DNA of 58,014 nt from an uncultured Ectothiorhodospiraceae bacterium. Its GTDB lineage: Bacteria > Pseudomonadota > Gammaproteobacteria > UBA9214. The notes under the pieces are model-generated. The model did no database searches and was not told the origin of the DNA. It saw only the letters and a list, made by a program, of their open reading frames with translations. The stretch is taken from positions 1 to 58,014 of the forward strand of contig CAMYJZ010000003.1 in assembly GCA_947258845.1 (NCBI GenBank). The letters are read 5' to 3'. Positions 2,530 to 56,529 of the stretch are shown piece after piece; position 1 is the stretch's first letter, and each line of letters begins with the position of its first letter. A program made the translations under genes and the position numbers.

Positions 2530-2593
2530 GTATGGATAAACCCACATTATTCACCGCAGAGGCGCGGAGGGCGCAGAGTAAAAATCTAGTTAA

Positions 2594-2723
2594 AGAAGCA
2601 CTGTTTAATTCGAGTATCACGTCATAGCGAGCGTAGCGAAGCAATCTCCCAACAGTTATCTCAATGGTTTGTAGATTGCTTCGTCACTTTGTTTCTCGCA
2701 ATGACGAATTAATCAGGGTTTCC
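2594..2723. mobile_element. putative IS5-like MITE with TTAA target-site duplication
   Basis: TTAA at 2590-2593 and 2724-2727. Terminal IRs agaagcactgtttaattcg (2594-2612) and revcomp ggaaaccctgattaattcg (2705-2723) match at 15/19. No transposase. Confidence 0.6.
2620..2706. repeat. REP/RPE-like palindromic element (GTCATWGCGAG...CGAAGCAATCT type)
   Basis: Outer stem cgtcatagcgag (2620-2631)/ctcgcaatgacg (2695-2706), 11/12; inner perfect stem cgaagcaatct (2637-2647)/agattgcttcg (2673-2683). Confidence 0.8.
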
Positions 2724-2786
2724 TTAATCTTGCCGAGTTTTCATCAGTATTGCTCTGCGTTCTCCGCGCCTCCGCGGTGAGATTTC

Positions 2787-3608
2787 TTAAATATCCCGCA
2801 GCAATTCGTTGATGCCGACCTTGGAGCGGGTCTTTTCGTCCACGCGCTTGACGATGACGGCGCAGTAGAGGCTGTACTTGCCGTCCTTGGACGGCAGGTT
2901 GCCCGAGACCACGACCGAACCCGCCGGTACCCGCCCATAGAGGATCTCGTCGGTGGTGCGGTCGTAGATGCGCGTGCTCTGGCCGATATACACACCCATG
3001 GAGATTACCGAGCCTTCCTCGACAATCACGCCTTCAACCACTTCGGAGCGGGCGCCGATAAAACAATTGTCTTCGATAATGGTGGGACTGGCCTGTACCG
3101 GTTCGAGGACACCGCCGATTCCGACACCACCCGACAGGTGGACGTTCTTGCCGATCTGGGCACAGGAGCCCACCGTTGACCAGGTGTCCACCATGGTGCC
3201 GCTGTCGACGTAGGCGCCGATGTTGACATAGGAAGGCATAAGAATGGCACCCGGAGCAATGAAGGCACCCTTGCGCGCCGTGGCCGGCGGGACGACCCGC
3301 ACCCCGCCCTCGCGGAATTCGCGTGAGTTGGTGTCCGCGTACTTGGAAGGAACCTTGTCGTAGTAGTTGGTGAAGCCGCCCTTGATGAAGGCGTTGTCCT
3401 CGATGCGGAAGGACAGCAACACCGCCTTCTTGAGCCAGTCATTAACCACCCACTCGCCATCCTGCTTCTCTGCAACCCGGGCGACGCCGCGATCAAGCAG
3501 ATCGATGGCCTCCAGGGTGGCTTCCTTTACATGCGTCTCCACACTGCGCGGGGTAATGTCCGCGCGCCGTTCAAAGGCTTCCTCGATCGTGGCCTGAATG
3601 TCACTCAT
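2787..3608 (-). CDS. dapD: 2,3,4,5-tetrahydropyridine-2,6-dicarboxylate N-succinyltransferase
   Basis: [42 protein letters not shown]; 273 aa. Confidence 0.98.
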
Positions 3609-3662
3609 GCTGCGTTTGCTCCCTTAAGTCCAAGATTTCTGTCAGCTATTTATGATAACTGC

Positions 3663-4859
3663 CTACAGGCTGACAAGATACGATTTAATGCGCTGCGCGG
3701 CCTCTATGCAGTCTTCCAGCGGGGCGACCAGCGCCATGCGCACATGCCGGTTCCCCGGATTGATGCCGGCAGCCGTGCGTGACAGGTAACTGCCCGGCAG
3801 CACACTGACATTCTGTTGTTCCAGCAGGCCACGGGCGAATTCACAGTCATCGATGGGGGTGACCGGCCAGAGATAGAAGCCGGCCGGCGGTTGCTGCACA
3901 TCGAGGAGCGGCGCCAGGATCCCGAGCAGCGCCGAGAATTTCTCCCGGTAGAGTGCGCGGTTGGCGGCGACATGGGCCTCGTCCTCCCAGGCGCGGATGC
4001 TGGCGGCCTGGGTCGCCGGTGGCATGGCGCAGCCGTGGTAGGTGCGGTAGCGCAGGAACGCCTCGATCAGCCGGGCATCACCGGCCACGAAGCCGGAGCG
4101 CAGGCCGGGGGCATTGGAACGCTTCGAGAGACTGTGAAACACCATGCAGCGGCTGAAGTCAGTGCGACCCATGGCCGCGGCGGCCTGCAGCAGCCCGGGC
4201 GGGGCGGCGGACTCGTCCAGGTAGATTTCCGAGTAACATTCATCCGAGGCGATGGTAAAGTCATGCCGGTCGGCGAGCTGGATCAGTTTCTGCAGGGAAG
4301 CGATGTCCATGACCGCGCCGGTCGGGTTGGCGGGCGTGCAGATGTAGACCAGCTGGCAGCGCGACCAGACGGACTCGGGGATGCTGTCCAGGTCCGGCAG
4401 GTAGCCGCTGGCCGCCGTGGTGTTCATGAACACCGGTTCGGCGCCGGCCAGCAAAGCGGCCCCTTCGTAGATCTGGTAAAACGGGTTGGGCATCAGCACG
4501 AGCGGGTCCCTGGTCCGGTCCACCACGCATTGCGCGAATGCGAACAGGGCCTCGCGCGTGCCATTCACCGGGAGAATGTGACGCTCCGGATCAAGGCTGT
4601 CGCCGGGGAGCGCGAAGCGCCGGCTCAGCCAGGTCGCGATCGCGGTGCGCAGTGCAGGTATCCCGCGCGTAGCCGGGTAGTTGGACAGTCCGTGCAGGTG
4701 GGTGATGACCTCTTCCGTGATAAATCCGGGCGTGGGGTGTTTGGGTTCTCCGATGGACAGCGCGATGGGTTCCAGGTCCCCGGGTGCGGTGACACCGGCA
4801 TTCAGCCGGGCCAGGCGTTCGAACGGGTAGGGTTGCAGGCGTGACAGGTCGGGGTTCAT
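3663..4859 (-). CDS. dapC: succinyldiaminopimelate transaminase
   Basis: MNPDLSRLQPYPFE, SDECYSEIY, FHSLSKRSN (PLP Lys), YRTYHGCAM. Confidence 0.93.
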   Translation of the reverse strand: MNPDLSRLQPYPFERLARLNAGVTAPGDLEPIALSIGEPKHPTPGFITEEVITHLHGLSNYPATRGIPALRTAIATWLSRRFALPGDSLDPERHILPVNGTREALFAFAQCVVDRTRDPLVLMPNPFYQIYEGAALLAGAEPVFMNTTAASGYLPDLDSIPESVWSRCQLVYICTPANPTGAVMDIASLQKLIQLADRHDFTIASDECYSEIYLDESAAPPGLLQAAAAMGRTDFSRCMVFHSLSKRSNAPGLRSGFVAGDARLIEAFLRYRTYHGCAMPPATQAASIRAWEDEAHVAANRALYREKFSALLGILAPLLDVQQPPAGFYLWPVTPIDDCEFARGLLEQQNVSVLPGSYLSRTAAGINPGNRHVRMALVAPLEDCIEAAQRIKSYLVSL

Positions 4860-4969
4860 GCAGGTTCGGCTTCGTGGTTGATGGTATGTTTTCGGGAGTG
4901 ATATGAAACACGATGGTGGCGGGCAATATTCTGTCACTGCCTGTTTCCGTTGAAATTATACGGTATGCG

Positions 4970-5857
4970 ATGAACACGGCCAAACAACCACGTCCGCTGC
5001 TTCCGGTGATCAGCCTGCTGTTCACGGCGACCCTGTGGGGGATCGTCTGGTATCCCCTGCGCCTGCTCGAGGCGCAGGGCCTGGCCGGGCTCTGGAGCGC
5101 CGCGATCAGCTATGGCGCGGCCCTGGTGGTCTGTGTCTGGGTCTTCGGGCGGGAGCGGCGGGCACTGCAGGAGAATCTCCTTTATCTCGCCCTGATGGGG
5201 CTCGCGGCCGGCTGGTGCAATGTCGCCTTCATCATGGCGGTGCTGGACGGCACCGTGGTGCGCGTGCTGCTGCTGTTTTACCTGTCCCCCTTCTGGGCGG
5301 TCTGTCTCGGCTGGTTGATGCTGGGCGAGCGCCTGGATGGCAAGTCCTTGCTGGTCTTCGTCATCGCCATCAGCGGGGCTGTGGTCATGCTCTGGGACGA
5401 GACCATCGGCATGCCCTGGCCGCGCAACGAGGCCGACTGGCTGGCGGTTTCCTCCGGGTTCGCCTTTGCACTGAGCAATGTCTATGTACGCAAGATGCAC
5501 CACGTGGGTGTCTGGCTCAAGTCGGTCAGTAGCTGGTTGGGTGTGGTGCTGGTGGCCGTTGCCTGGATAGCGTTCAGCCATGCCGGGCTGCCGGCAATCG
5601 GCAGTGGTGTATTGCTCGCGGCCATCGCCCTGGGTCTGTTCGGATTCCTGGTCATGACCGTCGCCGTCCAGTACGGCGTCTCGCACATGCCGGTGCACCG
5701 TTCGGCCGTTATCCTGCTGTTCGAACTGGTCGTCGGTGCGGTTTCCGCGCTGCTGTTGACGGACGAGGTGGTGCTTGTCCGCGAATGGGTCGGTGGCATC
5801 ATGATCGTCACGGCGGCCTACCTGGCGGCGCACATCCATGCGAGTGATACGGCCTGA
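4970..5857 (+). CDS. DMT/EamA family transporter
   Basis: About 10 hydrophobic segments in two EamA-like halves; LLFYLSPFW and AVILLFELVVG motifs. Confidence 0.88.
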   Translation: MNTAKQPRPLLPVISLLFTATLWGIVWYPLRLLEAQGLAGLWSAAISYGAALVVCVWVFGRERRALQENLLYLALMGLAAGWCNVAFIMAVLDGTVVRVLLLFYLSPFWAVCLGWLMLGERLDGKSLLVFVIAISGAVVMLWDETIGMPWPRNEADWLAVSSGFAFALSNVYVRKMHHVGVWLKSVSSWLGVVLVAVAWIAFSHAGLPAIGSGVLLAAIALGLFGFLVMTVAVQYGVSHMPVHRSAVILLFELVVGAVSALLLTDEVVLVREWVGGIMIVTAAYLAAHIHASDTA

Positions 5858-6234
5858 TGGCGGGACTCGGCATACATCACGTCAGCGTACTGGTCAGTGA
5901 CACCCGGCGTGCACTGGAATTTTATCACGGCGTCCTGGGTTTGCCTCTGGAACTCAGTCGGCCGGATACGGGTTTCCCCGGGGCCTGGCTGCGCATCGGG
6001 CAGCAGCAGCTGCACCTGCTCGAGTTGCCGGAACCGCTGGCCGCCAGCCGGGCGACCGGCCATGGCGGTCGAGACCATCATTTCGCCATGCTGGTCAACG
6101 ACCTCGACGGCCTGCGCCAGGCACTGGAGGTGCATGGCATAGCGTACACAACGAGCCGCTCGGGGCGCCGCGCCCTGTTCTGCCGTGACCCTGACGGTAA
6201 TGCGGTGGAAATCGTCGAGCAGGAAGTGACTTAG
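5857..6234 (+). CDS. VOC/glyoxalase family protein
   Basis: IHHVSVLV, QLHLLE, DHHFA, FCRDPDGNAVE motifs. Confidence 0.9.
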   Translation: MAGLGIHHVSVLVSDTRRALEFYHGVLGLPLELSRPDTGFPGAWLRIGQQQLHLLELPEPLAASRATGHGGRDHHFAMLVNDLDGLRQALEVHGIAYTTSRSGRRALFCRDPDGNAVEIVEQEVT

Positions 6235-9699: not shown

Positions 9700-9771
9700 A
9701 TAACTTACTGATTCCCCGGCGCCAATTCCAGGCGCGCGCTGTGTGCTGAGATTGCCGCTGGGGGGAGTGTA

Positions 9772-9787
9772 TGGTATAAAGGCGGGC
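9772..9787 (+). promoter_or_regulatory. rpsB extended -10 promoter with GC-rich discriminator
   Basis: TGGTATAAA followed by GGCGGGC, matching the known conserved gammaproteobacterial rpsB promoter layout. Confidence 0.7.
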
Positions 9788-9827
9788 TTGTTAAGCGGCC
9801 CATTCGGGGTTGCTTCGCAAAATTAAA

Positions 9828-9925
9828 TTCACACATGTGCCGGCACATGCAGCAGGGTGCCTGGCGGCCTTTGATTACGGCTGCCGGGTTGCTGTCATGG
9901 GGTACATGGAAGCCTAACCCGAAAT
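9828..9925 (+). ncRNA. rpsB 5' leader (t44 / S2 autoregulatory element)
   Basis: CACAC..., GGGTG and GGGGTACATGGAAGCCTAACC blocks between the promoter and rpsB resemble the t44 family; boundaries approximate. Confidence 0.65.
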
Positions 9926-9938
9926 TGGAGAAATATTG

Positions 9939-10892: not shown

Positions 10893-10946
10893 ACAACCCT
10901 GCAGTGGTGTTCAGGGTACCCGGATTGATTGAGAGAGGTTAGGACT

Positions 10947-11834: not shown

Positions 11835-11889
11835 TGCGGGGCCACAGCCGATATGCCAGGGATCTTCAGTGCAGCTGAGAGCAACAATC

Positions 11890-11920
11890 AACGGGGTCGG
11901 TAGTCGACCCCGTTTTTTTT
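11890..11920 (+). terminator. Rho-independent terminator after tsf
   Basis: Stem aacggggtcg/cgaccccgtt with a 5-nt loop, running into a T tract. Confidence 0.85.
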
Positions 11921-12013
11921 GCATGGCATTGGGGGCGGAAAAGTAAGACAATGGCCCCGATTCCGCGAAGATTCATGAATATTCTATATATTGTTGACTT
12001 ATAAGGAAATATA

Positions 12014-12727: not shown

Positions 12728-12730
12728 AGA

Positions 12731-42089: not shown

Positions 42090-43046
42090 GTGGCTAAACG
42101 ACGCAAGGATTCTGGCGGAAAGGACCAGCCTTCTACCCGGGGAGGTGAGTCCGCGGGTGCCGATGCCAGTCCAGACAAGAAGCCCGGCCACGGCAAGGGC
42201 TTCCCGTCACCCGCAGATCACGACCCGACGCGACTCTATCTCAGCGAGATCGGCGCCTCTCCGCTGTTGACGGCGGAAGAAGAGGTGTTCTACTCGCGCA
42301 AGGCCCAGCGGGGCGATGAAAGCGCGCGTCAGCGCATGATCGAGAGTAACCTGAGGCTGGTCGTCAAGATCGCCCGGCGTTACATGAACCGCGGCCTGGC
42401 CTTCCTCGATCTCATCGAGGAAGGCAACCTGGGGCTAATACGGGCGGTGGAGAAATTCGACCCCGAGAGGGGATTTCGTTTTTCGACCTATGCGACCTGG
42501 TGGATCCGGCAGACCATAGAGCGTGCCATCATGAACCAGACGCGCACCATTCGTCTGCCCATCCATGTGGTCAAGGAGATCAATGTCTACCTGAGGGTGG
42601 CGCGCAAGCTGACGCAGGAGCTTGACCACGAACCGAGTGCAGATGAGATTGCCAGCCTGCTGGACAAGCCGCTCGAGGAGGTGCAGCGCATGCTGGGGCT
42701 GAACGAACGTACGGCATCGACCGACACCAGTATCATGAATGAGCCCGGCAAAACCCTGCTGGACACCCTGGTTGACGACAGCTCGCCGGATCCGACCGAG
42801 GCCCTGCAGGAAGATGATATACACGAAAACCTGGAGGAATGGCTGGGGCAGTTGAATGACAAGCAGCGCGAGGTGGTGGAACGCCGCTTCGGCCTGCACG
42901 GTTATTCGGTTTCCACCCTGGAGGAGGTCGGGCGCGAAATCGGGGTTACCCGTGAGCGGGTTCGCCAGATCCAGATGGATGCCCTGAAACGGCTGAAAAG
43001 GATACTCGAGAGCGAGGGTTTCTCGGTCGATGCCCTGCTGAAATAG
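42090..43046 (+). CDS. rpoS: RNA polymerase sigma factor RpoS
   Basis: [34 protein letters not shown]; follows nlpD. GTG start inferred from a GGAG RBS. Confidence 0.95.
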
Positions 43047-44814: not shown

Positions 44815-44819
44815 ATCAG

Positions 44820-46136
44820 TTGAATCCGGTAAATGTTGGCCTGCTGGGTCTGGGCACTGTGGGCGGGGGTACCTTTAACGTGCTCAACCGCAATGCCGAG
44901 GAAATTGTGCGTCGTGCCGGGCGCGGGATTCGAATTACCCAGGCTGCGGCACGCGCCTATGATCCGGCGGCGCTGCCCGGGATCGAGTCGATTGCCGTCT
45001 CAGATGATGCCTTTGCCGTGGTGGACAGCCCGGATATCGACATCATTATCGAACTGATCGGCGGTTACGAGCCGGCGCGTGAACTGGTGCTCAGGGCCAT
45101 CGCTAACGGCAAGCATGTGGTCACGGCCAACAAGGCACTGATCGCCCTGCACGGCAACGAGATCTTCGCGGCGGCCCAGGAGAAGGGTGTCATGGTGGCC
45201 TTCGAGGCCGCGGTCGCCGGCGGCATCCCGATCATCAAGGCGCTGCGCGAGGGCCTGGCGGCAAACAAGATCGAGTGGCTGACCGGGATCATCAACGGCA
45301 CCGGCAACTTCATCCTGACCGAGATGCGCGACAAGGGCCGCGATTTCGTCGACGTGCTCAAAGAGGCCCAGCATCTGGGTTATGCCGAGGCCGATCCGAG
45401 CTTTGATATCGAGGGTATCGATGCGGCCCACAAGCTGACCATTCTGGCCTCGATCGCTTTCGGTATCCCGCTGCAGTTCGACAAGGTCTACACCGAGGGC
45501 ATCAGTCATATCACCCGCGAGGATGTCGGCTATGCCGCCGAGTTCGGCTACCGCATCAAGCACCTCGGTTTCACCCGGCGTACTGCCAGGGGTATCGAGT
45601 TGCGGGTGCATCCCACGCTGATACCCGAGCGCCGCCTGATCGCCAACGTCGATGGTGTGATGAACGCGGTGCTGGTGAAGGGTGATGCCGTGGGGCCGAC
45701 GCTGTATTACGGTGCGGGTGCGGGATCGGAACCAACGGCATCCGCCGTGGTGGCCGACGTGATCGACGTGGTGCGCACCCTGACGGCCGACCCCGGAAAC
45801 CGCGTGCCGCACCTGGCGTTCCAGCCGCATGCCCTGTCAGATGTACCGATCCTGTCCATGGATGAGGTGGTGACCGCGTACTACCTGCGCCTGCTGGCAA
45901 CCGACAAGCCCGGCGTGCTATCGGAGGTGACCAGCATCCTGGGTCGGCTCGCCATCAGTATCGAGGCGATTCTCCAGAAGGAGCCATCGGCCGGGGTAGC
46001 CGAGGTGCCGATTATCATCCTGACCCATTCCGTCCAGGAACGGCAGATGAATGATGCCATCCGGCAGATCGAGGCCCTGGACAGCATTCATGGTGCGGTC
46101 ACCCGTATCCGCCTGGAACACCTCGACTGCGACTGA
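44820..46136 (+). CDS. hom: homoserine dehydrogenase
   Basis: GLGTVGGG, FEAAVAGGIP, GYAEADP, C-terminal ACT domain. Confidence 0.97.
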   Translation: MNPVNVGLLGLGTVGGGTFNVLNRNAEEIVRRAGRGIRITQAAARAYDPAALPGIESIAVSDDAFAVVDSPDIDIIIELIGGYEPARELVLRAIANGKHVVTANKALIALHGNEIFAAAQEKGVMVAFEAAVAGGIPIIKALREGLAANKIEWLTGIINGTGNFILTEMRDKGRDFVDVLKEAQHLGYAEADPSFDIEGIDAAHKLTILASIAFGIPLQFDKVYTEGISHITREDVGYAAEFGYRIKHLGFTRRTARGIELRVHPTLIPERRLIANVDGVMNAVLVKGDAVGPTLYYGAGAGSEPTASAVVADVIDVVRTLTADPGNRVPHLAFQPHALSDVPILSMDEVVTAYYLRLLATDKPGVLSEVTSILGRLAISIEAILQKEPSAGVAEVPIIILTHSVQERQMNDAIRQIEALDSIHGAVTRIRLEHLDCD

Positions 46137-46183
46137 TTACTCTTTCTTTATCTTACGCGCTGCAGGTCAGCGAGGAATAACGC

Positions 46184-47329
46184 ATGCCTACCGGATCCCG
46201 TTACACAGGATTGATCGAACACTACCGTGACCGCCTGCCGGTCTCTGCCGGCACCCGGATAATCAGCCTGGGTGAGGGCAATACACCGCTGGTGCGGCTG
46301 GAAAACATCCCGCGCGAAATTGGCAAGGATGTGGAACTGTATGTGAAGTATGAGGGCCTCAACCCGACCGGTTCCTTCAAGGACCGCGGTATGACCATGG
46401 CGGTGACCCGGGCGGTTGAAGAGGGTAGCCGTGCCGTGTTGTGTGCCTCCACGGGCAACACGTCGGCGGCCGCCGCGGCCTACGCCGCACGGGCCGGCAT
46501 TACCGCCTTCGTCATCATACCCGAGGGCAAGATCGCCCTTGGCAAGCTGGCGCAGGCCATGATCCACGGTGCCGTGGTGTTGCAGATCCAGGGCAATTTC
46601 GATGACGGCATGCGACTGGTCAAGGAGGTTGCCACCGAGGCGCCGGTCACCATTGTCAATTCCATCAACCCCTACCGTCTGCAGGGCCAGAAGACCGCCG
46701 CCTTCGAGATCGTCGACGAACTCGGGCGTGCGCCGGACTACCACTGCCTGCCGGTGGGCAACGCCGGCAATATCACGGCCCACTGGATCGGCTATTGTGA
46801 ATATGCCCATCACGGTGACGGCGAGGTCACGACTGCGTGTGCCTATTGCGAAGGCTCATCCTGTGCCTACGGCGGGCGGGGCGTGACCGACACCCGCCCG
46901 GTCATGGTCGGCTACCAGGCCGCCGGTTCGGCCCCGTTCATGCGCGGCGCCATGGTGGATCACCCGGAAACGGTTGCCACGGCCATCCGCATCGGCCACC
47001 CGCAGTCCTGGGACATGGCCTGGAAGGTCCGGGAGGAGTCCGGCGGCTGGTTCGATGAGTGTACCGACGAGGAGATACTGGCGGCGCAGAAGCTGCTGAC
47101 CTCAAGCGAGGGAATCTTCTGTGAACCGGCCTCGGCGACCTCAATCGCGGGTGCCCTGCGCGATATCAAGGCCGGCAGGATCCCGGAAGGCAGCACCGTG
47201 GTTTGCACCCTGACCGGTCACGGTCTCAAGGACCCGGACACGGCCATCAAGCAGTGCGAGGGCGCCATGCGAACCGTCGACGCCGAACTCGGTGCCGTCA
47301 AGGACGCCATCCTGAAACACCTGGGGTGA
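46184..47329 (+). CDS. thrC: threonine synthase
   Basis: [33 protein letters not shown]. Confidence 0.96.
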
Positions 47330-47342
47330 CTTTAGTCGCTGC

Positions 47343-47539
47343 TTCATCGCCGAGACGCCGGGGTCGCAATTTCGAAAAAACAAAAAAATTATTCACCGCA
47401 GAGACGCAAAGGACGCAGAGAAAAGAAATAATTATTTCGAAAACATCGAATATTATTACCCTGCATATGCACGACATGCTTTGTCAACCAAATACTTTAT
47501 TTAAGTTTTTCTCTGCGTCCTTTGCGCCTCTGCGGTGAA
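47343..47539. repeat. CGCAGAG-triplet inverted-repeat element, copy 2 (plus degenerate orphan arm)
   Basis: Left arm 47392-47420 and right arm 47511-47539 are complementary at 28/29, around a 90-bp AT-rich spacer. Degenerate arm at 47343-47370. Confidence 0.9.
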
Positions 47540-47608
47540 ACAGGTTTTCCCTGTTCGCAATTCAGCGTGCCATTGACCAAATCTGTGTGATTTTAGCGAT
47601 CAACTATT

Positions 47609-48655
47609 TTGTCTGACTCGGTGAACAAGCTGGTGCTGGTGGTGCCGGGTCTGTGCGGTCCGGCCGGTGCAGACCCGTTTACCGGTCTTCCCGATGGCCC
47701 CCCGCAGGCGCTAGAGAAACTCCTGGCGCGCGCCCGGGTGAAATCCGGCCTGGCCCGGGATCTGGATGCCTGCGTGGGTGATTTCTTCGGGCTGTCCGCC
47801 GGGGCGGCGGGTACGCTGCCGGTGGCGCCACTGACCTGGCTGGCCGATACCGGCACTCCGGGCGCGGGCTATCTCATGCGTATCGATCCGGTGCATCTGC
47901 GCGCGGACCAGTCCAGCCTGCGCCTGTATGACAGCCATGCCTTCTCCATCGAGCCCGGCGAGGCGCAGGAACTGGCAGCGGCCTTCAACGACCTGTACCG
48001 GGACCGCGGCTGGCAACTGGAGGCAGTGATGCCGACGCGCTGGTATCTCGCGCTTGCCGATCCTCCCGTGCTGGAGACCCGCTCACCGGCGGATTGCGCC
48101 GGACGGGATATCAATGAGTTGTTGCCGGGCGGCGCAGACCGCCGTGAATGGCATGCCCTGCTGAACGAGGTCCAGATGCTGTTTCACGCTCACCCGGTCA
48201 ACACGGCGCGCGAGCGGCGCGGCGAGCCGGCCATCAACAGCATCTGGCCGTGGGGCGGGGGTGTGCTGCCCGCCGAAGTCGAGACATCGCTCGCGAGTGT
48301 GATTGCCGACCAGCCCCTGGTGATGGGACTGGCGCAACTGGCCGGTATTCCCCGGCGTGACCTGCCGGCGGAGGCGGTCGAGCTGGCAGCTGAGCTTGGT
48401 GACGGTACCCATCTCGTTGTCATCGATGCCCTGGCCACAGCTGCCCATTATGCCGATGCCGAGGCCTGGGCCGCGGGACTGCTGCAGCTCGAGACCGCCT
48501 GGTTCAGGCCCCTGCTGGAGATGGTCGGCGCCGGTCGCGTCGGGCAACTCGATCTCTGTCCTGTCAACGGCAGGTGCTACCGCGTCAGCCGCCGCCTGCT
48601 GCGGCGCTTCTGGGTTCGCCCGCGCCGTCTCGCGCAGCGTTGTCTCAATGGCTAG
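47609..48655 (+). CDS. RpfE-type / phosphoglycerate-mutase-like hypothetical protein
   Basis: DPVHLRAD, LLNEVQMLFH.HPVN..R, NSIWPWGGG; upstream of recJ. Confidence 0.75.
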   Translation: MSDSVNKLVLVVPGLCGPAGADPFTGLPDGPPQALEKLLARARVKSGLARDLDACVGDFFGLSAGAAGTLPVAPLTWLADTGTPGAGYLMRIDPVHLRADQSSLRLYDSHAFSIEPGEAQELAAAFNDLYRDRGWQLEAVMPTRWYLALADPPVLETRSPADCAGRDINELLPGGADRREWHALLNEVQMLFHAHPVNTARERRGEPAINSIWPWGGGVLPAEVETSLASVIADQPLVMGLAQLAGIPRRDLPAEAVELAAELGDGTHLVVIDALATAAHYADAEAWAAGLLQLETAWFRPLLEMVGAGRVGQLDLCPVNGRCYRVSRRLLRRFWVRPRRLAQRCLNG

Positions 48656-50369
48656 GCAGATCGTGCGGCGCGAGTCCGGCGGTGCAGCGGTCGACTGGCC
48701 GGAAACCGTGCCGCCCCTGCTGCGGCGCGTGTATGCAGCGCGTGCTGTCGAATCCGCCAATGAGCTGGATTATGCACTGGCGAACCTCGAACAACCGGGG
48801 CTGCTCGGGGGGCTCGATGCGGCCATTGACCTGCTGGAGGAGGCCCTGCGCAAGCAACAGCGCATTGTCGTGATCGGTGACTTCGACGCCGACGGGGCGA
48901 CCAGCACGGCGCTGTGTTTGCGCGCCTTGCGCGCCATGGGGGCCCGGGATCTGCACTACCTGGTGCCGAATCGCTTCGAATTCGGCTACGGCCTGACCCC
49001 CGAGATCGTGGCCGTGGCTGCCGGGCTGCACCCGGACCTGATCGTGACCGTGGACAACGGCATCTCCAGTATCGCCGGTGTCGAGGCCGCCAGGCAACAG
49101 GGGATCCGCGTACTGATCACCGATCACCACCTGCCGGGGAGCGTGCTGCCACCGGCGGATGCCATCGTCAATCCGAACAGTCCGGGCGATGAATTCCCCA
49201 GCAAGAACCTGGCCGGTGTCGGTGTCGCCTTCTACGTCATGCTGGCGCTGCGGACCCGTCTGCGCCAGCGTGGCTGGTTCGGGCAGCAGGGAATCCAGGA
49301 ACCCAATCTCGGCCGCCTGCTGGACCTGGTGGCGCTGGGGACCGTGGCGGATGTGGTGCCGCTGGATCGCAACAACCGCATCCTGGTGCAACACGGTATC
49401 CAGCGTATCCGCTCCGGGCAGTGTGTCCCGGGTATCCGCGCCCTGCTGGCGGTGGGCCGGCGCGATGCCGCGCGCACCGTTTCCACCGACCTCGCGTTTG
49501 CCGTCGGCCCGCGCCTCAATGCCGCCGGGCGCCTGGAGGACATGTCGCTGGGGATCGAATGCCTGCTGACCGACAGCGAGGCAGGCGCCCGTGAAATGGC
49601 GACCCGGCTGGATGCCCTCAACCGCGACCGCAAGGAAATCGAGTCCGACATGCAAACCCGTGCCCTGCAGTCTATCCAGGAACTGCACCTGGATGTGCAG
49701 GGGCTGCCGACCGGTCTGTGCCTGTTCGATCCCGGCTGGCACCAGGGCGTGATCGGGATCCTGGCGGCACGCATCAAGGAGCAGTTCCATCGACCGGTGA
49801 TCGCGTTTGCGCGGGTCGGTGACGGTGAATTGAAGGGCTCGGCACGCTCGATTCCGGGATTTCATGTCCGCGATGCCCTCGATGCCGTGGCCGCGCATCA
49901 CCCGGAACTCATCACCCGCTTCGGCGGCCATGCCATGGCGGCCGGGCTGACGCTGGACGAGGCGCACTACCCGGCCTTTGCCGCGGCCTTCGATACCGAG
50001 GCATCACGCCTGCTGTCCGGGGCAGACCTGAACCACACCATCCACAGCGATGGTGAACTGCAGTCGGAGGAATTCTCCCTGGAGACCGCGCAAGTCCTGC
50101 GCGAGGCCGGACCCTGGGGGCAGGGTTTTCCTGCACCGGTGTTTGACGGTCGCTTCAGGCTGATCAGTCAGCGGGTAGTGGGTGAGCGTCACCTGAAACT
50201 GGTGCTGGCACCGCTCGACGGGGGAGGGCAGATCGACGCCATCGCCTTCAACACCGGCGCCCTGCCGGGATCATGCCGGGAGGTTATGGCGGCTTATCAA
50301 CTCGATGTCAATGAATACCGCGGCATGTTGAGTGCCCAGCTGGTGGTGGAGTACATCGAGGCCGTTTGA
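48648..50369 (+). CDS. recJ: ssDNA exonuclease RecJ
   Basis: GDFDADG, TVDNG, TDHH, GGHAMAAG. Confidence 0.97.
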   Translation: MARQIVRRESGGAAVDWPETVPPLLRRVYAARAVESANELDYALANLEQPGLLGGLDAAIDLLEEALRKQQRIVVIGDFDADGATSTALCLRALRAMGARDLHYLVPNRFEFGYGLTPEIVAVAAGLHPDLIVTVDNGISSIAGVEAARQQGIRVLITDHHLPGSVLPPADAIVNPNSPGDEFPSKNLAGVGVAFYVMLALRTRLRQRGWFGQQGIQEPNLGRLLDLVALGTVADVVPLDRNNRILVQHGIQRIRSGQCVPGIRALLAVGRRDAARTVSTDLAFAVGPRLNAAGRLEDMSLGIECLLTDSEAGAREMATRLDALNRDRKEIESDMQTRALQSIQELHLDVQGLPTGLCLFDPGWHQGVIGILAARIKEQFHRPVIAFARVGDGELKGSARSIPGFHVRDALDAVAAHHPELITRFGGHAMAAGLTLDEAHYPAFAAAFDTEASRLLSGADLNHTIHSDGELQSEEFSLETAQVLREAGPWGQGFPAPVFDGRFRLISQRVVGERHLKLVLAPLDGGGQIDAIAFNTGALPGSCREVMAAYQLDVNEYRGMLSAQLVVEYIEAV

Positions 50370-50481
50370 AGGGGATATTCGCGTTCACGCCAGGGGTCGG
50401 CGGGTTGGCCGCAGTAGTTTCCGAGGGCCATCAGGGGTATGATGTCGCGCTGCAAATTCTTCTGCCTTACAGTGAGTTAAC

Positions 50482-51580
50482 ATGCCAGATCTGAATCCCA
50501 TACGGACATTGATCAAAGACCTCGACGGGCGTGCCGCTGCCCTCAGGGGGTATCTTTGACCTCGATACCAAGAGTGAGCGTCTGACCGAGGTCGTTCGCG
50601 AACTGGAAGATCCCGCCATCTGGGACAACCCGGAACGCGCCCAGGAACTGGGGCGTGAGCGGGCGCGCCTGGAAGAGGTCGTGCTGACGCTGGGCACCAT
50701 GGCGCAGTCCCTGCAGGACGCCGCGGAGCTGCTGGAGATCGCGGCTGAGGAGGATGATGTGGCCAGCGTGGAGGAGATCGCGGCCGATGTCGCCAGACTG
50801 GAGGCTGAGATTGCACAGCTGGAGTTCCGCCGCATGTTCTCCGGGGAGATGGATGAGGCCAATGCCTTCCTCGATATCCAGTCCGGTTCCGGTGGCACCG
50901 AGGCCCAGGACTGGGCCGAGATGCTGCTGCGCATGTTCCTGCGCTGGGGCGAGCGCCACGGCTTCAAGGCCGAGCTGATCGAGGTGTCTGCGGGTGAAGT
51001 GGCCGGTATCAAGAGCGCCACGGTCAGGTTCGAGGGTGACTATGCCTTCGGCTGGCTGCGCACCGAGACCGGTGTCCACCGGCTGGTGAGGAAATCGCCG
51101 TTCGATTCCGGCAACCGCCGTCACACCTCGTTTGCCGCGGTGTTCGTATCGCCGGAGATCGCGGATGATTTCGAAATCGACATCAATCCGGCAGATCTGC
51201 GCATCGACGTCTACCGCGCCAGTGGTGCGGGCGGCCAGCACGTCAACCGCACGGAGTCGGCGGTGCGCATCACCCATGCCCCCAGCGGTATCGTGGTGCA
51301 GTGCCAGAACGACCGTTCCCAGCACAAGAACAAGGCCACCGCGATGAAGCAGCTCAAGTCCAAGCTCTATGAGCTGGAGATGCAGAAGCGCAGCGTGGAC
51401 CAGCAGGCCCTGGAGGAGACCAAGTCGGACATCGGCTGGGGCAGCCAGATCCGCTCCTACGTGCTGGACCAGTCACGTATCAAGGACCTGCGTACGGGTG
51501 TCGAGGTGGGCAATACCCAGGCGGTGCTTGACGGTGACCTCGACCAGTTCATCGAGGCCAGCCTGAAGAGCGGCCTGTAG
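50482..51580 (+). CDS. prfB: peptide chain release factor 2 (programmed +1 frameshift)
   Basis: ATG 50482, 25 codons to CTT-TGA-C (50554-50560), then continues in +1 frame; SPF and GGQ motifs. Confidence 0.97.
50545..50560 (+). promoter_or_regulatory. prfB frameshift signal
   Basis: AGGGGG TAT CTT TGA C: internal SD plus slippery stop. Confidence 0.95.
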
Positions 51581-51601
51581 CATGCAGTTGATCCGTGAAG
51601 A

Positions 51602-51782
51602 TCAACCGCAAAGACGCAAGGCGCGCAAAGAAATCATTAACAATAAACTCACCGCCGAGTCGCAGAGGGCGCTGAGAATAAAGACAATATATATCAGTAC
51701 TCTATTGTTTTCCTCTGCGTCCTCCGTGTCTCTGCGGTAATATTTTTTGTTTGCTTTGCGTACCTTGCGCCTTTGCGGTGAA
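51602..51782. repeat. CGCARAG-triplet inverted-repeat element, copy 3 (two nested pairs)
   Basis: Outer arms 51602-51630 and 51754-51782; inner arms 51648-51676 and 51713-51741. Confidence 0.9.
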
Positions 51783-51818
51783 CGCATATATATGTAGAGT
51801 CGGGAAAACAGACAGACC

Positions 51819-53306
51819 ATGACAGACCAGGACGAACATGCCCTTATAGCCCAGCGACGCGCCAAGCTGAATGCCCTGCGCGAGGCCGGCAATGCCTTCC
51901 CCAATGATTTTCGCCGTGATGCCATTGCCGGTGAGCTGCATGCCGAATACGATGACAGGGACAACGAGGCCCTGGAGGCCAGCCCGATCCGCGTCAAGGT
52001 GGCCGGGCGACTCATGGCCAAGCGTGTGATGGGCAAGGCCAGCTTTGCCCAGCTACAGGACATGTCCGGGCGTATCCAGCTGTTCCTGCAGCGCGATTCC
52101 CTGGCGGAAGGCGTCTACAAGGATTTCAAGACCTGGGACATCGGTGATATCGTCGGTGCCGAAGGGGTGCTGTTCAAGACCAGGACCGGCGAGTTGTCGG
52201 TGCGCACCGAGACGGTCCGGTTGCTGACCAAGTCGCTACGGCCCCTGCCGGAGAAGTTTCACGGCCTGGCTGACCAGGAGACCCGCTACCGGCAGCGCTA
52301 CGTGGACCTCATCATGAACGAGGTCTCGCGCAACACCTTCCGGATGCGCAGTCGCATCGTGCAGTACATTCGTCGCTACCTGAATGAACGTGACTACCTC
52401 GAGGTGGAGACCCCGATGATGCAGGCCATTCCGGGTGGTGCCACGGCGCGGCCGTTTTCCACCTACCACCACGCCCTGGACATGGACCTGTTCCTGCGCA
52501 TCGCCCCGGAGCTGTACCTCAAGCGCCTGGTGGTCGGCGGCTATGAACGGGTCTACGAGATCAACCGCAATTTCCGTAACGAGGGCCTGTCGACGCGCCA
52601 CAACCCCGAGTTCACCATGCTGGAGTTCTACCAGGCCTATGCCGATTACAATGACCTGATGGACCTCACCGAGGACCTGCTGGTCAGCATGGCAGCGGAC
52701 CTGCTGGGCACCACCACGATCGAGTGCCAGGGGGAGCAGTACGATTTCGGCCGGCCGTTCCGGCGCATGACCGTGCGTGATTCCATCCTGCATTTCAATC
52801 CGGACATCGCGGCAGCCGACATCGACGACCTCGACAGGGCGCACGGGCTTGCCGGACGGCTCGGCATTCCGCTGAAGGACAGCTTCGGCCTGGGCAAGGT
52901 GCAGATCGAGATCTTCGAGAAGACCGTGGAAGGCCGGCTGACCGACCCCACCTTTATTACCGCCTATCCGACCGAGGTGTCGCCGCTGGCACGACGCAGT
53001 GACGCGGACCCGTTTGTCACCGACCGCTTCGAGTTTTTCGTCGGCGGGCGCGAGATCGCCAACGGGTTTTCCGAGCTCAACGATGCCGAGGACCAGGCAG
53101 AGCGCTTCCGGATGCAGGTGGCGGAGAAGGAGGCCGGCGACATGGAGGCCATGCACTTCGACGCCGACTATATCCGCGCCCTGGAGCACGGGATGCCGCC
53201 GACGGCGGGCGAGGGCATCGGCATCGACCGGCTGGTAATGCTGTTTACCGATTCGCCCTCGATCCGGGATGTGCTGCTGTTTCCGCACCTGCGCCCGGAG
53301 GCGTAG
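51819..53306 (+). CDS. lysS: lysine--tRNA ligase
   Basis: [31 protein letters not shown]. Confidence 0.98.
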
Positions 53307-53386
53307 GTTCCGGTATCCGCTATTCCTTGCGACGATGCCGGTTGAAAAAAACCGGCAGAGGCGCCTGTAAATCGGCCTTTGCGGCC

Positions 53387-54949
53387 TCAGGTGCCCTGTG
53401 CGCCGCCGACGAAGAGCTGGAGGCGCTGACCGGGTTGCAGGTATTTTCCTTTCGGGAGGGTGTTCCAGGCCCTGAGCTCGCCGATGCTGACCCTGAATCT
53501 TCTCGATATCAGGAACAGCGAGTCGCCCTTGCGCACGGTGTAGCTGAACGGGCGGGGCACCGCGTCATCCTGGTGGATGACGAGTACCTGCCCGGGCCTG
53601 AGATAGGCATCGGGGTCCAGGTCATTCCACAGGGCCAGATTGCGCACGCTGACCCCATTGCGCCGCGCAATCGTCCAGAGTGAGTCTCCCTTGCGGACAC
53701 GATGGCGGGTCTCATCCGCAATCCTGTCGCTTTCCAAAGCCGTGTCCGGCGCTGGACGGCTGACCGGTTTCCGTGCCGCCACCGGTACCAGCAGGTGGCG
53801 GCCGGCGCGGATGGTGTTGCTGTGCAGGCTGTTGCTGGCGCGCAGGACCGGGACCGTGGTGTCGTAACGGCGGGCGATATGGCCGAGTGTGTCACCAGGC
53901 TGGATCTTGTGACGCACCCATTTCATGCGCTCCGAGGCCGGTAGCGTCGCCAGGTTCTGCTCGAAGACGGCTATCTTCTCCTGCGGGAGGGCCAGTTGGT
54001 GGGGTCCTTCCGGGTGGGTGGCCCAGCGTTGAAACCCGGGATTCAGCTGCTGCAGCTCCCCAATCTCCATGCCCGCGAGTTCGGCGGCGACCTCGAGATT
54101 GATCTGGCCCGGTAGTTCGATGAGCGTGAAGCGGGGTTCCTGGTCGAGCGGGATCAGCTGCACCCCGTAGTCCTCCGGCGCCGCGACAATGCTGCTGATG
54201 GCCAGTAGCCTGGGTATGTAGGACGTGGTCTCGCGCGGGAGTTTGAGGGACCAGAAATCGACAGGTTTGCCGGCCTGGTGGTTTTTCCTGATGGCCTTGC
54301 GGACTGTCTTGCCACCGGCGTTGTAAGCGGCCAGTGCCAGTAACCAGTCACCTCTGAACTCCTGGTGCAGTTGGTCCAGGTGGTCCAGTGCGGCCCGGGT
54401 GGAGGCCACCACGTCACGGCGGCCGTCATACCACCAGTCCTGTTTCAGGCCGTAGTGCCTTCCCGTGCGCGGAATGAATTGCCAGAGCCCGGCCGCCTGT
54501 TCCGAGGAACGGGCCTTTGGATTGAAGCTGCTCTCGACAAACGGCAGCAGGGCGATTTCGGTGGGGAAGCCGCGCTTGTCCACTTCATAGTAGATGTAGG
54601 CCAGGTAGGGCTCGCCACGCTCGAATGAGCGCTCGATGTCGCGGGTGTTAGCAGCATAACGGCGGATATGGCGTTCCACCGACGCCCTGTCCTTGTCGGG
54701 CAGTCTGAAACCGCTGCGGATCCGGTCCCAGGTATCGATCGGGGCTGCCACTACAGGCTGCCGGGCCGGTTCATCCTGTGGCAATTCCGGAGAGTCGACC
54801 GATGGGGCACCCCCGGCCGACTGATCTGCCCCGCTGCTGACATCGGGCGGCGCCGGGATCTCCGGACGGGACCTGGCGCTGTCCAGTGATGCGCAACCCG
54901 TCATCAGCAGGATGATGAGGCACGGCCAAATAGAATGGCGAATACTCAT
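53387..54949 (-). CDS. mltD: membrane-bound lytic murein transglycosylase D (SLT + 3 LysM)
   Basis: Lipobox LMTGC, LPFVESSF, AGLWQF, AAYNAG, three LysM repeats. Confidence 0.93.
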   Translation of the reverse strand: MSIRHSIWPCLIILLMTGCASLDSARSRPEIPAPPDVSSGADQSAGGAPSVDSPELPQDEPARQPVVAAPIDTWDRIRSGFRLPDKDRASVERHIRRYAANTRDIERSFERGEPYLAYIYYEVDKRGFPTEIALLPFVESSFNPKARSSEQAAGLWQFIPRTGRHYGLKQDWWYDGRRDVVASTRAALDHLDQLHQEFRGDWLLALAAYNAGGKTVRKAIRKNHQAGKPVDFWSLKLPRETTSYIPRLLAISSIVAAPEDYGVQLIPLDQEPRFTLIELPGQINLEVAAELAGMEIGELQQLNPGFQRWATHPEGPHQLALPQEKIAVFEQNLATLPASERMKWVRHKIQPGDTLGHIARRYDTTVPVLRASNSLHSNTIRAGRHLLVPVAARKPVSRPAPDTALESDRIADETRHRVRKGDSLWTIARRNGVSVRNLALWNDLDPDAYLRPGQVLVIHQDDAVPRPFSYTVRKGDSLFLISRRFRVSIGELRAWNTLPKGKYLQPGQRLQLFVGGAQGT

Positions 54950-55138
54950 TGATCAAGTATGAACATTCGGGTCGATCCTTGTAAGTGCAAGACTGTGAAG
55001 CAGTTCACTGTCAGGGCAGAACGGAATCCATTCAGCCCAGCGGTATGCTGACAGGCCCTCCGGTCAAGGTCAATATCCGCGAGGACGGCCGCTATCAGGG
55101 CGGCATCCGGCCGTCGGATGGGGTATGATTTTGCGGTA

Positions 55139-55903
55139 ATGAATACGGCTTCGTCAGTATCCCAGCGCGCCTTGTCCCTGCGCCGGTGGTATCGGCGCCC
55201 CCTGGGGCGTCTGCTGGTCGACGTCGAGTTATCCGCTCTGGCGGATCAGCTCCCCAATATCTTCGGCTACCATCTGTTGGTGGTCGACCCCCCCTGGGAT
55301 GACTGTACCCTGAGCGCCAGCCGGATCCCGCACCACGTGGTGCAACGCACCCAATCTGATCCGCTGACAGACGCGGGATTGATCGGGGACAGCGAGTCAT
55401 GGCCGGTGATGACCGATACCGTGGATGCCATTATCCTGCCTCATACCCTCGAGATGACCCCGGACCCGCATCAGGTCCTGCGCGAGGCCGACCGCAGTCT
55501 GATCCCCGATGGTCACCTGGTGATACTGGGTTTCAATCCGCGCAGTTTCTGGGGGGTGCGACGGGTTCTGTCACGCCGCTCGCGGGGAATGCCCTGGGCA
55601 GCCAGGTTCCACAGTATGCACCGTATCAAGGACTGGCTCAGCCTGCTGGGATTCGACACCCTGGAGAGTCGTTTCCTGTTCCATCGACTGCCCGTGCAGA
55701 ACACACGCCTGCTGGAGAAGCTCCAGTTTCTCGAGCCCCGCACAGCGCACGGCAGGATGCTGCTGGCCGGATCCTACATCCTGGTCGCCAGGAAACGCAC
55801 CGTGATCATGACGGCAATCAAGGCCGGGCACGCCGCCTCGCGGCAGCTGTTCCCGGTAGGCATCCCGAGTTCCAGCCAGAGGAATCTGCGGCGTGCCGGC
55901 TGA
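55139..55903 (+). CDS. SAM-dependent methyltransferase (YafS-like)
   Basis: [34 protein letters not shown]; upstream of rnhA. Alternative start at 55118. Confidence 0.88.
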
Positions 55904-56348
55904 AACGGAGATCTACACCGATGGTGCCTGCCGCGGCAATCCGGGTCCGGGTGGCTGGGGTGCGGTGCTGCGTTACCAGGGCCATGAGAAGACCCTCTAT
56001 GGGGCCGAGGCGATGACCACCAACAACCGCATGGAGCTCATGGCCGCGATCCGGGCGCTGGAAAGCCTGAAGCGTCAGTGCCGGGTGCGGCTGACGACGG
56101 ATTCGCAGTACGTGCAGAAAGGGATTACCGAATGGCTGCCCAACTGGAAGAAACGCGGCTGGAAGACCGCCGCCAGGAAACCGGTGAAAAACGCCGATCT
56201 GTGGCAGCGCCTGGATGCGGCCATCACGGGGCATGAGATCATGTGGGAGTGGGTGCGGGGCCACAGCGGGCACCCGGAAAACGAACAGGCGGATGCACTG
56301 GCCAACCAGGCCATCGACGAACTAATGATGATGACCGAAAGTGAATGA
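55893..56348 (+). CDS. rnhA: ribonuclease HI
   Basis: [33 protein letters not shown]. Confidence 0.98.
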
Positions 56349-56529
56349 TTTACCGCAAAGACGCAAAGAAGTAAAAGAAGTAAATAATTATCACCGCAGA
56401 GACGCCGAGGACGCGGAGAACAACATTCTTAGAAATAAACCATACCCTGATATGTCGATTGCATAGGCATGAATTTGTTTTATTCTTTGGCATTCTTTCG
56501 CTCGGCGTTCTCTGCGCCTCTGCGGTGAA
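56349..56529. repeat. CGCAGAG-triplet inverted-repeat element, copy 4 (plus orphan CGCAAAG-type arm)
   Basis: Orphan arm 56349-56368; paired arms 56390-56418 and 56501-56529 around an 82-bp AT-rich spacer. Confidence 0.9.

Follow-up and report, generated by a model that had tools for sequence, protein, structure and literature searches.

Intergenic inverted heptamer arrays of an uncultured Ectothiorhodospiraceae bacterium belong to the family of arms that encloses GxxExxY genes

The DNA analysed here (the window) is a stretch of 58,014 nucleotides (nt) from an uncultured Ectothiorhodospiraceae bacterium of the Gammaproteobacteria, contig CAMYJZ010000003.1 of GenBank assembly GCA_947258845.1. 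It is contig C3 of a genome assembly, referred to below as G000, of 2.35 Mb in 160 contigs with 60.6% GC and a completeness of 93.9%. At four sites between genes, the window carries repeats whose arms consist of TT/CACC followed by three CGC-N-R-AG heptamers, with a spacing of 8 and 9 nt, and which are arranged as inverted pairs around AT-rich DNA. These four loci are gene-less members of the family of arms that boxes in genes of the GxxExxY family (TIGR04256; PF13366, PDDEXK_3). The lineage keeps a GxxExxY gene at a conserved locus between ribF and ileS, and arms and gene co-occur across bacterial families. Related genomes used for comparison include G001, G002 and G004 of the same genus, and G005 and G014 of other genera.

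The arm pattern used for the window search (CACC plus three heptamers, at most 3 mismatches) matched at 10 positions, whereas 0.01 matches are expected from 100 dinucleotide-preserving shuffles. The original prediction, which was made from the letters alone, had described 12 arms at four loci, i.e. five pairs and two orphans. Nine of the ten matches are arms of that description, the outer left arm at 51604 was recovered by a slightly relaxed pattern, and the degenerate orphan arms at 47343-47371 and 56349-56377 were recognised by eye, giving the same total of 12. The tenth match (42240-42266, 3 mismatches) lies inside a gene and was rejected as noise outside the family. In an inverted-repeat search of the window, the paired arms appear as inverted repeats of 28-47 nt that are 74-88% complementary. 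The features are as follows.

2550..2578, + strand: site 1 (dapD / ArsC-yffB-like gene, both genes on the - strand), left arm of CGCNGAG type, found by pattern and inverted-repeat search
2579..2752, no strand: site 1 interior, 174 nt, within which an inverted repeat from another family is nested (about 2620-2703)
2753..2781, - strand: site 1 right arm, 5 nt from the dapD stop codon
47343..47371, + strand: site 2 degenerate orphan arm, 14 nt past the thrC stop codon, retained in G001 and G004
47392..47420, + strand: site 2 left arm with hybrid heptamers G-A-G, found by pattern and inverted-repeat search
47421..47510, no strand: site 2 interior, 90 nt, AT-rich, ortholog of the G004 interior with 69% identity
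47511..47539, - strand: site 2 right arm, G-A-G, found by pattern and inverted-repeat search
51602..51630, + strand: site 3 (prfB / lysS) outer left arm of CGCAAAG type, found by the relaxed pattern
51648..51676, + strand: site 3 inner left arm of CGCNGAG type, found by pattern
51677..51712, no strand: site 3 inner interior, 36 nt
51713..51741, - strand: site 3 inner right arm, found by pattern
51754..51782, - strand: site 3 outer right arm, found by pattern
56349..56377, + strand: site 4 (rnhA / dnaQ) degenerate orphan arm of CGCAAAG type, beginning directly after the rnhA stop codon
56390..56418, + strand: site 4 left arm of CGCNGAG type, found by pattern and inverted-repeat search
56419..56500, no strand: site 4 interior, 82 nt, with 95% identity in G002
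56501..56529, - strand: site 4 right arm, 26 nt upstream of the dnaQ start codon

The genes that flank the four loci are dapD, an ArsC/YffB-family gene, thrC, prfB, lysS, rnhA and dnaQ, as had been proposed. The gene after thrC, originally named rpfE-like, gave only weak matches of the apgM/alkaline-phosphatase type and is not rpfE-like.

The arms of the window extend far beyond this genome. A scan with the exact arm pattern, in which each species was represented by one genome, gave at least 128 stretches, and among the matches listed the phyla include Myxococcota, Chloroflexota, Acidobacteriota, Planctomycetota, Verrucomicrobiota, Bacteroidota, Chlamydiota and Nitrospinota, together with a Methanoperedens metagenome-assembled genome (MAG) and others. 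In an Algoriphagus genome (L031) and a Thermomicrobiales MAG (L076), arm pairs with the identical 27-nt arm pattern surround an open reading frame (ORF) of 124-125 residues with homology to TIGR04256 (GxxExxY) and PF13366 (PDDEXK_3) at E-values of 1e-43 to 1e-44. Short 'empty' arm pairs with loops of 11-50 nt were found in many phyla, again among the matches listed. The exact arm pattern also occurs in 103 stretches of IMG/VR viral contigs (L190-L269), several of these contigs having 3-5 arms; the contigs may be phage or host fragments.

Closer to the window, the GxxExxY gene could be identified in 12 of 41 relatives. In G001 and G004, and also in G014 and G020 of genus g4, it lies inside arms between the ribF stop codon and the ileS start codon, with the left arm beginning 2-4 nt behind ribF and the right arm adjoining the stop codon of GxxExxY itself. 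The gene also adjoins ileS in G005 and G024, and a copy with variant arms is found upstream of xthA in G008, G015, G016 and G018. A first family search of the G000 assembly for GxxExxY was negative. However, contig C78 ends in the last 22 GxxExxY codons, followed by the right arm and ileS, and ribF ends contig C5, so the negative result is an assembly artefact. The 22-codon fragment (E 1.9e-6 to the GxxExxY hidden Markov model, HMM) is the sole signal in a six-frame scan of the genome with filters off, and the hairpin interiors are therefore not decayed genes; none of the interiors at the four window loci contains an ORF or a GxxExxY HMM signal. The statement in the original prediction that similar repeats flank GxxExxY genes was thus borne out by identical arms around TIGR04256/PF13366 genes in other phyla, by the same-genus genomes and by the contig-end fragment in G000 itself. 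In G004 two loci of the ribF/ileS type carry a GxxExxY cassette (L141 at C40 and L158 at C6), one of which is nearly identical to the G001 locus (L142, C15); this could reflect strain mixture or bin contamination, or be a real duplication.

The generality of the link was assessed in one genome each from 200 other families of the class, using a general arm pattern and a gene cut-off. Arms were matched in 28 of the 200 genomes (reversed control: 0) and GxxExxY scored above the cut-off in 26. Both were present in 15 genomes, arms only in 13, the gene only in 11 and neither in 161 (odds ratio 17, Fisher p 9e-9). Several of the gene-only genomes were scored as arm-less because their arm spacing or last base differs from the pattern. 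GxxExxY loci were taken from 13 of these families, one from each; inverted heptamer arrays visibly enclose 12 of them, and at the remaining locus (G121) both arms point the same way. The heptamers around the gene vary by lineage (CGCAGAG, CGCAAAG, CGCGGAG, CACAGAG, CACGGAG, CACGAAG, CACAGAT, CGCAGAT and CACGGAA), and in G142 and G034 the arms of the gene match the dispersed arms of their own genome. Genes of the four-helix-bundle family TIGR02436 in three arms-only genomes (G101, G188 and G197; L184-L187) have arms of the same design built from other unit sequences, which suggests that each small gene family has its own arms. The TIGR02436 cassette in G188 lies directly after the rpsI stop codon and before a tRNA gene.

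Within G000, the slightly relaxed pattern identified 250 arms, which cluster into 115 loci in 2.35 Mb; 144 of the arms fit the pattern exactly, while 72 deviate from it at one position, 22 at two and 12 at three. At no more than one mismatch there are 199 arms, compared with none for the reversed control pattern. The distribution among relatives is patchy: even within a single family, copy numbers per genome vary between 0 and 290. Two arm subtypes could be distinguished, all-CGCAAAG ('A') and CGCNGAG ('G'), and nesting of the two is frequent. The commonest architectures are the simple G pair (25 loci), a G pair around an A pair (9) and G-A-g (7), and 35 of the 115 loci have a single arm. Arm pairs show a mean of 3.75 mismatches per 27 nt, and 18 of 79 pairs contain hybrid arms (e.g. 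G-A-G), which could be recombinants between the A and G subtypes. In places the heptamer array of one arm is enlarged, to 8 copies at G000 C7:14650-14710 and to about 10 in G005 (L148); judged from these sequences, heptamer number apparently can grow by slippage.

The loci fill intergenic gaps, the median distance being 36 nt to a stop codon and 43 nt to a start codon; statistics of gene orientation and distance are based on crude in-house gene calls. Of 82 loci with clean flanks, 54 lie between co-oriented, 18 between convergent and 10 between divergent genes, which matches the background of all intergenic regions of G000 (1215, 290 and 296, respectively). A preference for co-oriented or post-stop placement was rejected, as there is no excess over this background, and the special placement between co-oriented housekeeping genes that had been read from the window does not hold. 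Of the 320 contig ends, 20 have an arm no more than 200 nt away, indicating that the assembly breaks at these repeats. No transposase had been seen in the window, and none of the type of the tyrosine transposases associated with repetitive extragenic palindromes (RAYTs) is present in the genome: the RAYT/Y1 transposase domain (PF01797) gave 0 matches in G000, at 93.9% completeness, while control genomes gave matches. Neither did a search of the G000 assembly for the TIGR02436 family give a match. Taken with the 115 dispersed loci and the arms around GxxExxY, this supports the original view of a non-autonomous or REP-like family whose partner enzyme lies elsewhere.

In some two to three dozen G000 arms, the first bases are directly followed by a conserved module that breaks up the arm. 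It measures about 45 nt, or about 100 nt in part of the copies, and has two small hairpins. Examples are found at C6:14736-14800 (L153:9737-9800), C4:53786, C7:14487 and C61:1333, as well as in L147 (G018) and L158 (G004). The module also occurs inside the arms of two other repeat classes and in other genera, and at times both arms carry it in mirror image. Such a module may represent a mini-insertion aimed at arms, or an alternative long form of the arm.

The 65 innermost spacers range from 36 to 400 nt (mode 80-105 nt) with a mean GC content of 36%, and the interiors of simple G pairs have 33% GC, as opposed to 54.7% in 825 element-free intergenic regions, so the AT-richness noted in the window is found genome-wide. 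No notable ORF could be identified within any G000 interior. The statement that the spacers have no sequence in common is correct within the window but not genome-wide: 38 of the 65 interiors are unique in the genome, and 27 match other places, mostly via further nested repeat kinds. Nine loci of an A-type subfamily have a common interior of about 110 nt with 70-82% identity, which implies that at least some elements have been copied as whole units. Among the simple CGCNGAG-type interiors, only 4 of 36 are similar to another. The first ~23 nt of the site 2 interior (47421..47510) are present again at another locus. The proposed comparison of spacers with phage and self sequence thus gave self matches, for the 27 interiors, and no phage match for the 3 of 4 window interiors tested (the 36-nt interior was left out).

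Several candidate origins of the interiors were rejected. For captured phage DNA, the 3 window interiors searched (those of 174, 90 and 82 nt) gave no match. A CRISPR-like array is at variance with repeats that are inverted pairs at dispersed loci and with 3 of 3 tested window interiors without phage match. Remnants of decayed GxxExxY genes were dismissed since the six-frame HMM scan, with filters off and E up to 10, gave no trace of the gene in any interior. A second inverted-repeat family lies inside the site 1 interior at 2620-2703, with arms of the GTCAT-GCGAG ... GAAGCAATC kind. Only this stretch of the site 1 interior matches other contigs of G002 and G004, at 83-89%, and the same kind of inverted repeat is also found just upstream of the GxxExxY gene in G008 (L150).

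Elements have been gained, lost, nested and replaced at orthologous sites. Between prfB and lysS, an A pair with a nested G pair is present in G000 and G002, while G001 has the A pair alone with a 28-nt loop, and in G004 and G005 the two genes are separated by element-free, GC-rich spacers (98 and 83 nt, respectively). The presence/absence variation anticipated for a mobile family is therefore seen at this site, both as element-free spacers and as an outer pair standing alone. The element at the thrC site is orthologous in G000 and G004, its arms differing at positions 1, 8 and 16 identically on both arms, and in G001 the site holds a larger composite. Between rnhA and dnaQ, one element is common to G000 and G002, and the site is taken by an A-type pair in G001 and by a G-type pair in G004, each with an unrelated interior. 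At C6:6350, G000, G001 and G002 have a G element in common, and G004 has an A pair with another interior. The dapD/yffB site is occupied in 6 of 6 genomes of 3 genera, with differing arm types and interiors. Presence/absence and nesting of this kind, as read from the aligned sequences, point to mobility of the elements. Target-site duplications, which had been considered as a possible signature, did not appear: the flanks have no fixed direct repeat, and the filled/empty comparison of G000 with G001 at prfB/lysS (one site) does not resolve a duplication. Nor was an excision product or a transposition intermediate seen. The extra sequences of G002 relative to the window are other repeat kinds.

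In orthologous elements the arms are better conserved than the interiors, with 91% versus 75% identity between G000 and G001, and 85% versus 69% between G000 and G004. Syntenic alignments were made for window positions 46000-57600 and 1700-3700 and for G000 C6:5000-20000, counting only positions in long alignments. With G002, they gave 91.3% identity for arms (n=412) and 89.8% for interiors (n=450), as compared with 78.2% at codon position 3 and 83.6% in other intergenic DNA. With G001 and G004 the interiors are 60-66% identical. The high identity of the interiors with G002 may possibly reflect constraint on them or a recent exchange among lineages, or codon position 3 may be saturated. At L167 and L169 (orthologous to G000 C6:14682 and 18946), the sites that hold CGC-type elements in G000 are taken in G004 by repeats of CCCTC/GAGGG-type units, which are similar to the 'class 4' pentanucleotide sites of a paper on Geobacter metallireducens (PMC2700814).

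The elements fold strongly on both strands, with z-scores of -5.3 to -13.2. Differences between paired arms, taken in the transcribed sense, would give 76 G-U versus 65 A-C combinations (p 0.40, 53 pairs). The lack of a G-U excess gives no sign of selection on an RNA stem, and strand-specific RNA pairing was rejected on this basis. Co-variation of paired arms was seen at three subtype positions only, where identity is 0.73-0.77 versus 0.53-0.56 for shuffled partners, so compensatory covariation between the arms was not upheld beyond these positions; a per-heptamer covariation test on 18 mixed pairs, which is a weak test, gave 35 of 54 versus 31 expected (P 0.036). From their sequence, the fixed arm positions look like a recognition code and not like half of a helix. 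A simple scan of the elements found no promoter-like sites (0) and no intrinsic-terminator tail, only two trivial small stems within right arms, and a promoter or terminator role was rejected accordingly. In Rfam the elements have no match: at the gathering threshold the window gave t44 RNA only (RF00127, 9812-9918, + strand, 68 bits versus a gathering score of 44), and one composite locus searched at E up to 1 gave chance-level rows only.

At least 8000 homologues of GxxExxY are present in the protein collection. Identity to the same-genus GxxExxY protein is 63-71% for members from Desulfobacterales, a Halobacteria MAG and Kallotenue. In 31 aligned sequences the invariant residues are D68, E78 and K80 (a D-ExK triad), the motif glutamate E28, H19, H89, Q92, Y96 and an NFN motif. 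Some database GxxExxY proteins extend into translated arms. An AlphaFold model is confident, with a predicted local distance difference test score (pLDDT) of 94.7. A Foldseek search with this model found nothing below E 0.001, and a wide structural search retrieved only PD-(D/E)xK nucleases with Z of 5-7.8, i.e. Cas4 SSO0001, BpuSI, CinB, BglII, NucS, Hjc and an XisH-like protein. The protein of about 125 amino acids (aa) is therefore predicted, on the strength of its model, to have a PD-(D/E)xK nuclease fold, and its conserved residues make it look like an active enzyme. No solved structure of a relative was found by sequence search. In a published description of PF13366/PDDEXK_3, the function is listed as unknown and multiple transfers are reported (PMC3424549).

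We propose that the hairpins are probably non-autonomous derivatives of the GxxExxY cassette, which are spread or kept uniform by the nuclease following a logic like that of RAYTs and their REPINs, the hairpin-forming doublets of repetitive extragenic palindromic (REP) sequences. The nuclease would recognise the heptamer arrays, cut the arms and drive copying or homogenisation. The parent cassette would have been a GxxExxY gene of about 125 aa between two inverted arms, each of CACC plus three heptamers. One or a few gene copies would stay at ribF/ileS, and gene-less arm pairs would have multiplied to more than 100 intergenic loci. Recognition, probably by a dimer, could take place on the two-fold symmetric arm pair or on a hairpin or cruciform, and would lead to cutting at the recognised arms. 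Through repair or re-insertion, arm pairs would then be copied into AT-rich DNA between genes, with a preference for places next to or within elements already present, and such copying would produce the nesting, the replacement of interiors at a persistent site and the hybrid arms.

A number of observations weigh against this proposal. Hairpins without the gene exist in closed or near-closed genomes: the closed genome G042 has 53 arms (at most 1 mismatch) in about 27 short hairpin loci with no gene-sized pair, and neither GxxExxY nor TIGR02436 was found in it; GxxExxY is also absent from G137 (16 arms) and G188 (32 arms). Overall, 6 of 13 genomes with at least 10 arms are without GxxExxY. The gene lies within the flank of only 7 of 128 genome-contig arm loci, among the matches listed, and within 600 nt of 0 of 103 viral-contig arm loci. 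The 38 of 65 unique interiors and the mere 4 of 36 similar G-type interiors appear unlike a family that has recently copied itself as a unit, and the occupancy of dapD/yffB would fit long residence with internal turnover as well as repeated insertion. No target-site duplication was found, the flanks being just rich in A and T (in 142 of 158 arms, position 0 is a T). Paired arms hardly co-vary beyond the subtype positions, and hence the hairpin is not visibly under selection. Finally, the matches of the modelled protein are generic and uninformative on substrate, and would assign a fold only. The main doubts thus arise from the arms-only closed genomes, the mostly unique interiors and the absence of junction evidence.

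Four other explanations have to be weighed. Arm pairs might act as RNA, i.e. as operon-transcribed long stems that either are cut, for instance by RNase III, or lend transcripts stability or insulation, with the nuclease gene being a passenger that uses the stem for its release. We regard this as unlikely, although it has several points in its favour, namely the strong RNA folding (z -5.3 to -13.2), the location in gaps of operon-like gene strings (median distances 36 nt to a stop and 43 nt to a start codon), the gene cassette that begins 2-4 nt past the upstream stop and whose own stop abuts the right arm, the 89.8% identity of interiors with G002 versus 78.2% at codon position 3, and, in the accessible part of its description, Coxiella's intervening sequence (IVS), which is stem-bounded, bears an ORF and is excised by RNase III (PMC4990558). 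However, both strands fold equally well, G-U is not in excess over A-C (76 vs 65, p 0.40, 53 pairs), no intrinsic-terminator tail or promoter-like site appears in the simple scan, and elements are also found between convergent (18) and divergent (10) genes; non-specific cutting of double-stranded RNA, moreover, leaves the retention of the heptamers across phyla unexplained. A second reading, in which the arms are static regulatory DNA bound by a host global regulator or nucleoid protein, was put forward for G. metallireducens, where, as far as the available text goes, 21 paired sites were interpreted as IHF/HU-type (PMC2700814). It would account for arms that are conserved above interiors, for fixed conserved positions with variable positions that do not co-vary, and for the persistence of sites across genera. 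We nevertheless find it improbable, given the copy numbers from 0 to 290 within one family, the presence/absence and nesting at orthologous sites, neighbour genes without a common theme, the same arms in many phyla, an archaeal MAG and viral contigs, and their tight link to one small nuclease gene. If GxxExxY itself were the binding protein, this reading would merge with the one that we favour.

The short 'empty' pairs with loops of 11-50 nt in many phyla, and the gene flanked by exactly these arms, could also mean that each hairpin is an independent insertion of a full GxxExxY cassette from which the gene was later deleted, and that gene-less elements never multiplied themselves. Of the explanations considered, this seems to us the least probable: no G000 interior retains a gene trace (HMM, filters off, E up to 10), there are 115 loci for one detectable gene, nine loci have a non-coding interior in common, and at prfB/lysS the inner element lies within an outer one which G001 has by itself. 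Hardly more credible is the notion that an enzyme other than GxxExxY makes or moves the hairpins, and that the nuclease gene merely prefers hairpin loops as a safe landing place. Arms-only genomes, including closed ones, and viral-contig arms without the gene nearby agree with it, but 12 of the 13 sampled genes lie in arms of this design, the TIGR02436 arms of the same design and different sequence point to gene-specific arms, and no RAYT was found.

The favoured reading, in which the hairpins derive from the GxxExxY cassette, has its closest precedent in the REPIN/RAYT systems. According to the accessible parts of two descriptions, these likewise have inverted conserved ends around a less conserved spacer whose length is more important than its sequence, are predicted to form hairpins, occur by the hundreds in extragenic space as singlets and ordered clusters, and have a partner gene that is present in one or a few copies, flanked by repeats and inherited vertically (Bertels and Rainey, 2011, PMC3116915; PMC3337134). 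The corresponding feature here is the set of 79 inverted doublets with a spacer (mode 80-105 nt) and fold z-scores of -5 to -13 that are dispersed extragenically. There are also clear differences. The partner of REPINs is an HUH/Y1 transposase, whereas the partner here is a protein of about 125 aa with a predicted PD-(D/E)xK fold, and PF01797 was not found in G000. The REP unit is an imperfect palindrome, whereas the arm described here is a direct array of three heptamers and only the pair is inverted. Most interiors here are mutually unrelated, unlike those of REPINs, and while REPIN-RAYT pairs are described, in the texts available, as lineage-bound, the same arms and a 63-71% identical gene are found here across phyla.

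The repeat type itself appears to have been noticed before. In Geobacter metallireducens, Aklujkar et al. (2009) reported 21 paired sites that lie on opposite strands, with a varying distance between them, and comprise three tandem repeats apiece, and read them as "regulator binding sites" of the IHF/HU type for unidentified global regulators (PMC2700814). The consensus of these paired sites is the reverse complement of a CACGGAG-type unit, i.e. of one of the heptamer variants around GxxExxY genes here. The three tandem repeats of 8-9 nt per site, the opposite-strand pairs and the dozens of intergenic copies are all alike, but the unit differs from CGCAGAG/CGCAAAG, and the likeness is one of published description and not of a letter-by-letter alignment. 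The portion of that paper available names no associated gene and no mobility (PMC2700814). Elements with similarities of another kind are the IVS of 23S rRNA (Coxiella burnetii, S23p), which the accessible text describes as selfish inserts of about 0.4-0.5 kb, stem-bounded and with one small ORF, that were acquired horizontally and then retained vertically (PMC4990558). Relatives of the IVS ORF family (TIGR02436) have inverted short-unit arms of the same design in this class. In contrast to the IVS, the elements here lie between protein genes, belong with a different ORF family and mostly are without an ORF.

Miniature inverted-repeat transposable elements (MITEs) resemble the hairpins in their terminal inverted repeats, small size, lack of genes, many copies and relation to a gene-bearing element with the same ends. 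They differ in that the interiors here are mostly unique and the gene-bearing form is without a known transposase: the sole gene-bearing form encodes the protein with the predicted PD-(D/E)xK fold. Nor could a target-site duplication be made out here in the flanks and in the one filled/empty comparison. The TAACTGA repeats of Beggiatoaceae and Cyanobacteria are also scattered, apparently horizontally acquired intergenic arrays of a conserved heptamer; as described in the available text, these are direct repeats just upstream of start codons, hardly ever arranged as inverted pairs and not linked to a nuclease gene (PMC4679880). No published link between heptamer-array repeats and the GxxExxY gene was found in the literature searched, with the alignments of the Geobacter supplement uncompared. 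In the same literature, GxxExxY gave incidental mentions only, TIGR04256 nothing, and the arm-start string primers only.

Among the non-coding features of bacterial genomes, REP-type repeats belong to the most abundant, and to our knowledge only one enzyme class, the RAYTs, has so far been tied to them. The present data tie a different and much smaller nuclease-fold protein, by position and co-occurrence, to a different repeat design. More speculatively, GxxExxY and the heptamer-array hairpins may constitute a second, RAYT-independent class of repeat plus enzyme that extends across most bacterial phyla, in which the nuclease would homogenise the hairpins, swap their interiors and seed copies by break-induced copying between elements and not by classical transposition; we put this forward tentatively, as a possibility that is well short of probable. 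The interiors, which against G002 are better conserved than synonymous sites and may for that reason be cargo with a function of their own, could in such a system consist of e.g. small RNAs released from the stem. The lineage studied here is a useful one, because its gene-less copies exceed the gene in number by a factor of about 100 and account for a noticeable part of all intergenic DNA. If the link between arms and gene is functional, it would give a role to PF13366, explain the 'global regulator sites' of Geobacter as well as the contig breaks of such MAGs at arms (20 of 320 ends), and provide a sequence-specific mini-nuclease together with its site for biochemical study.

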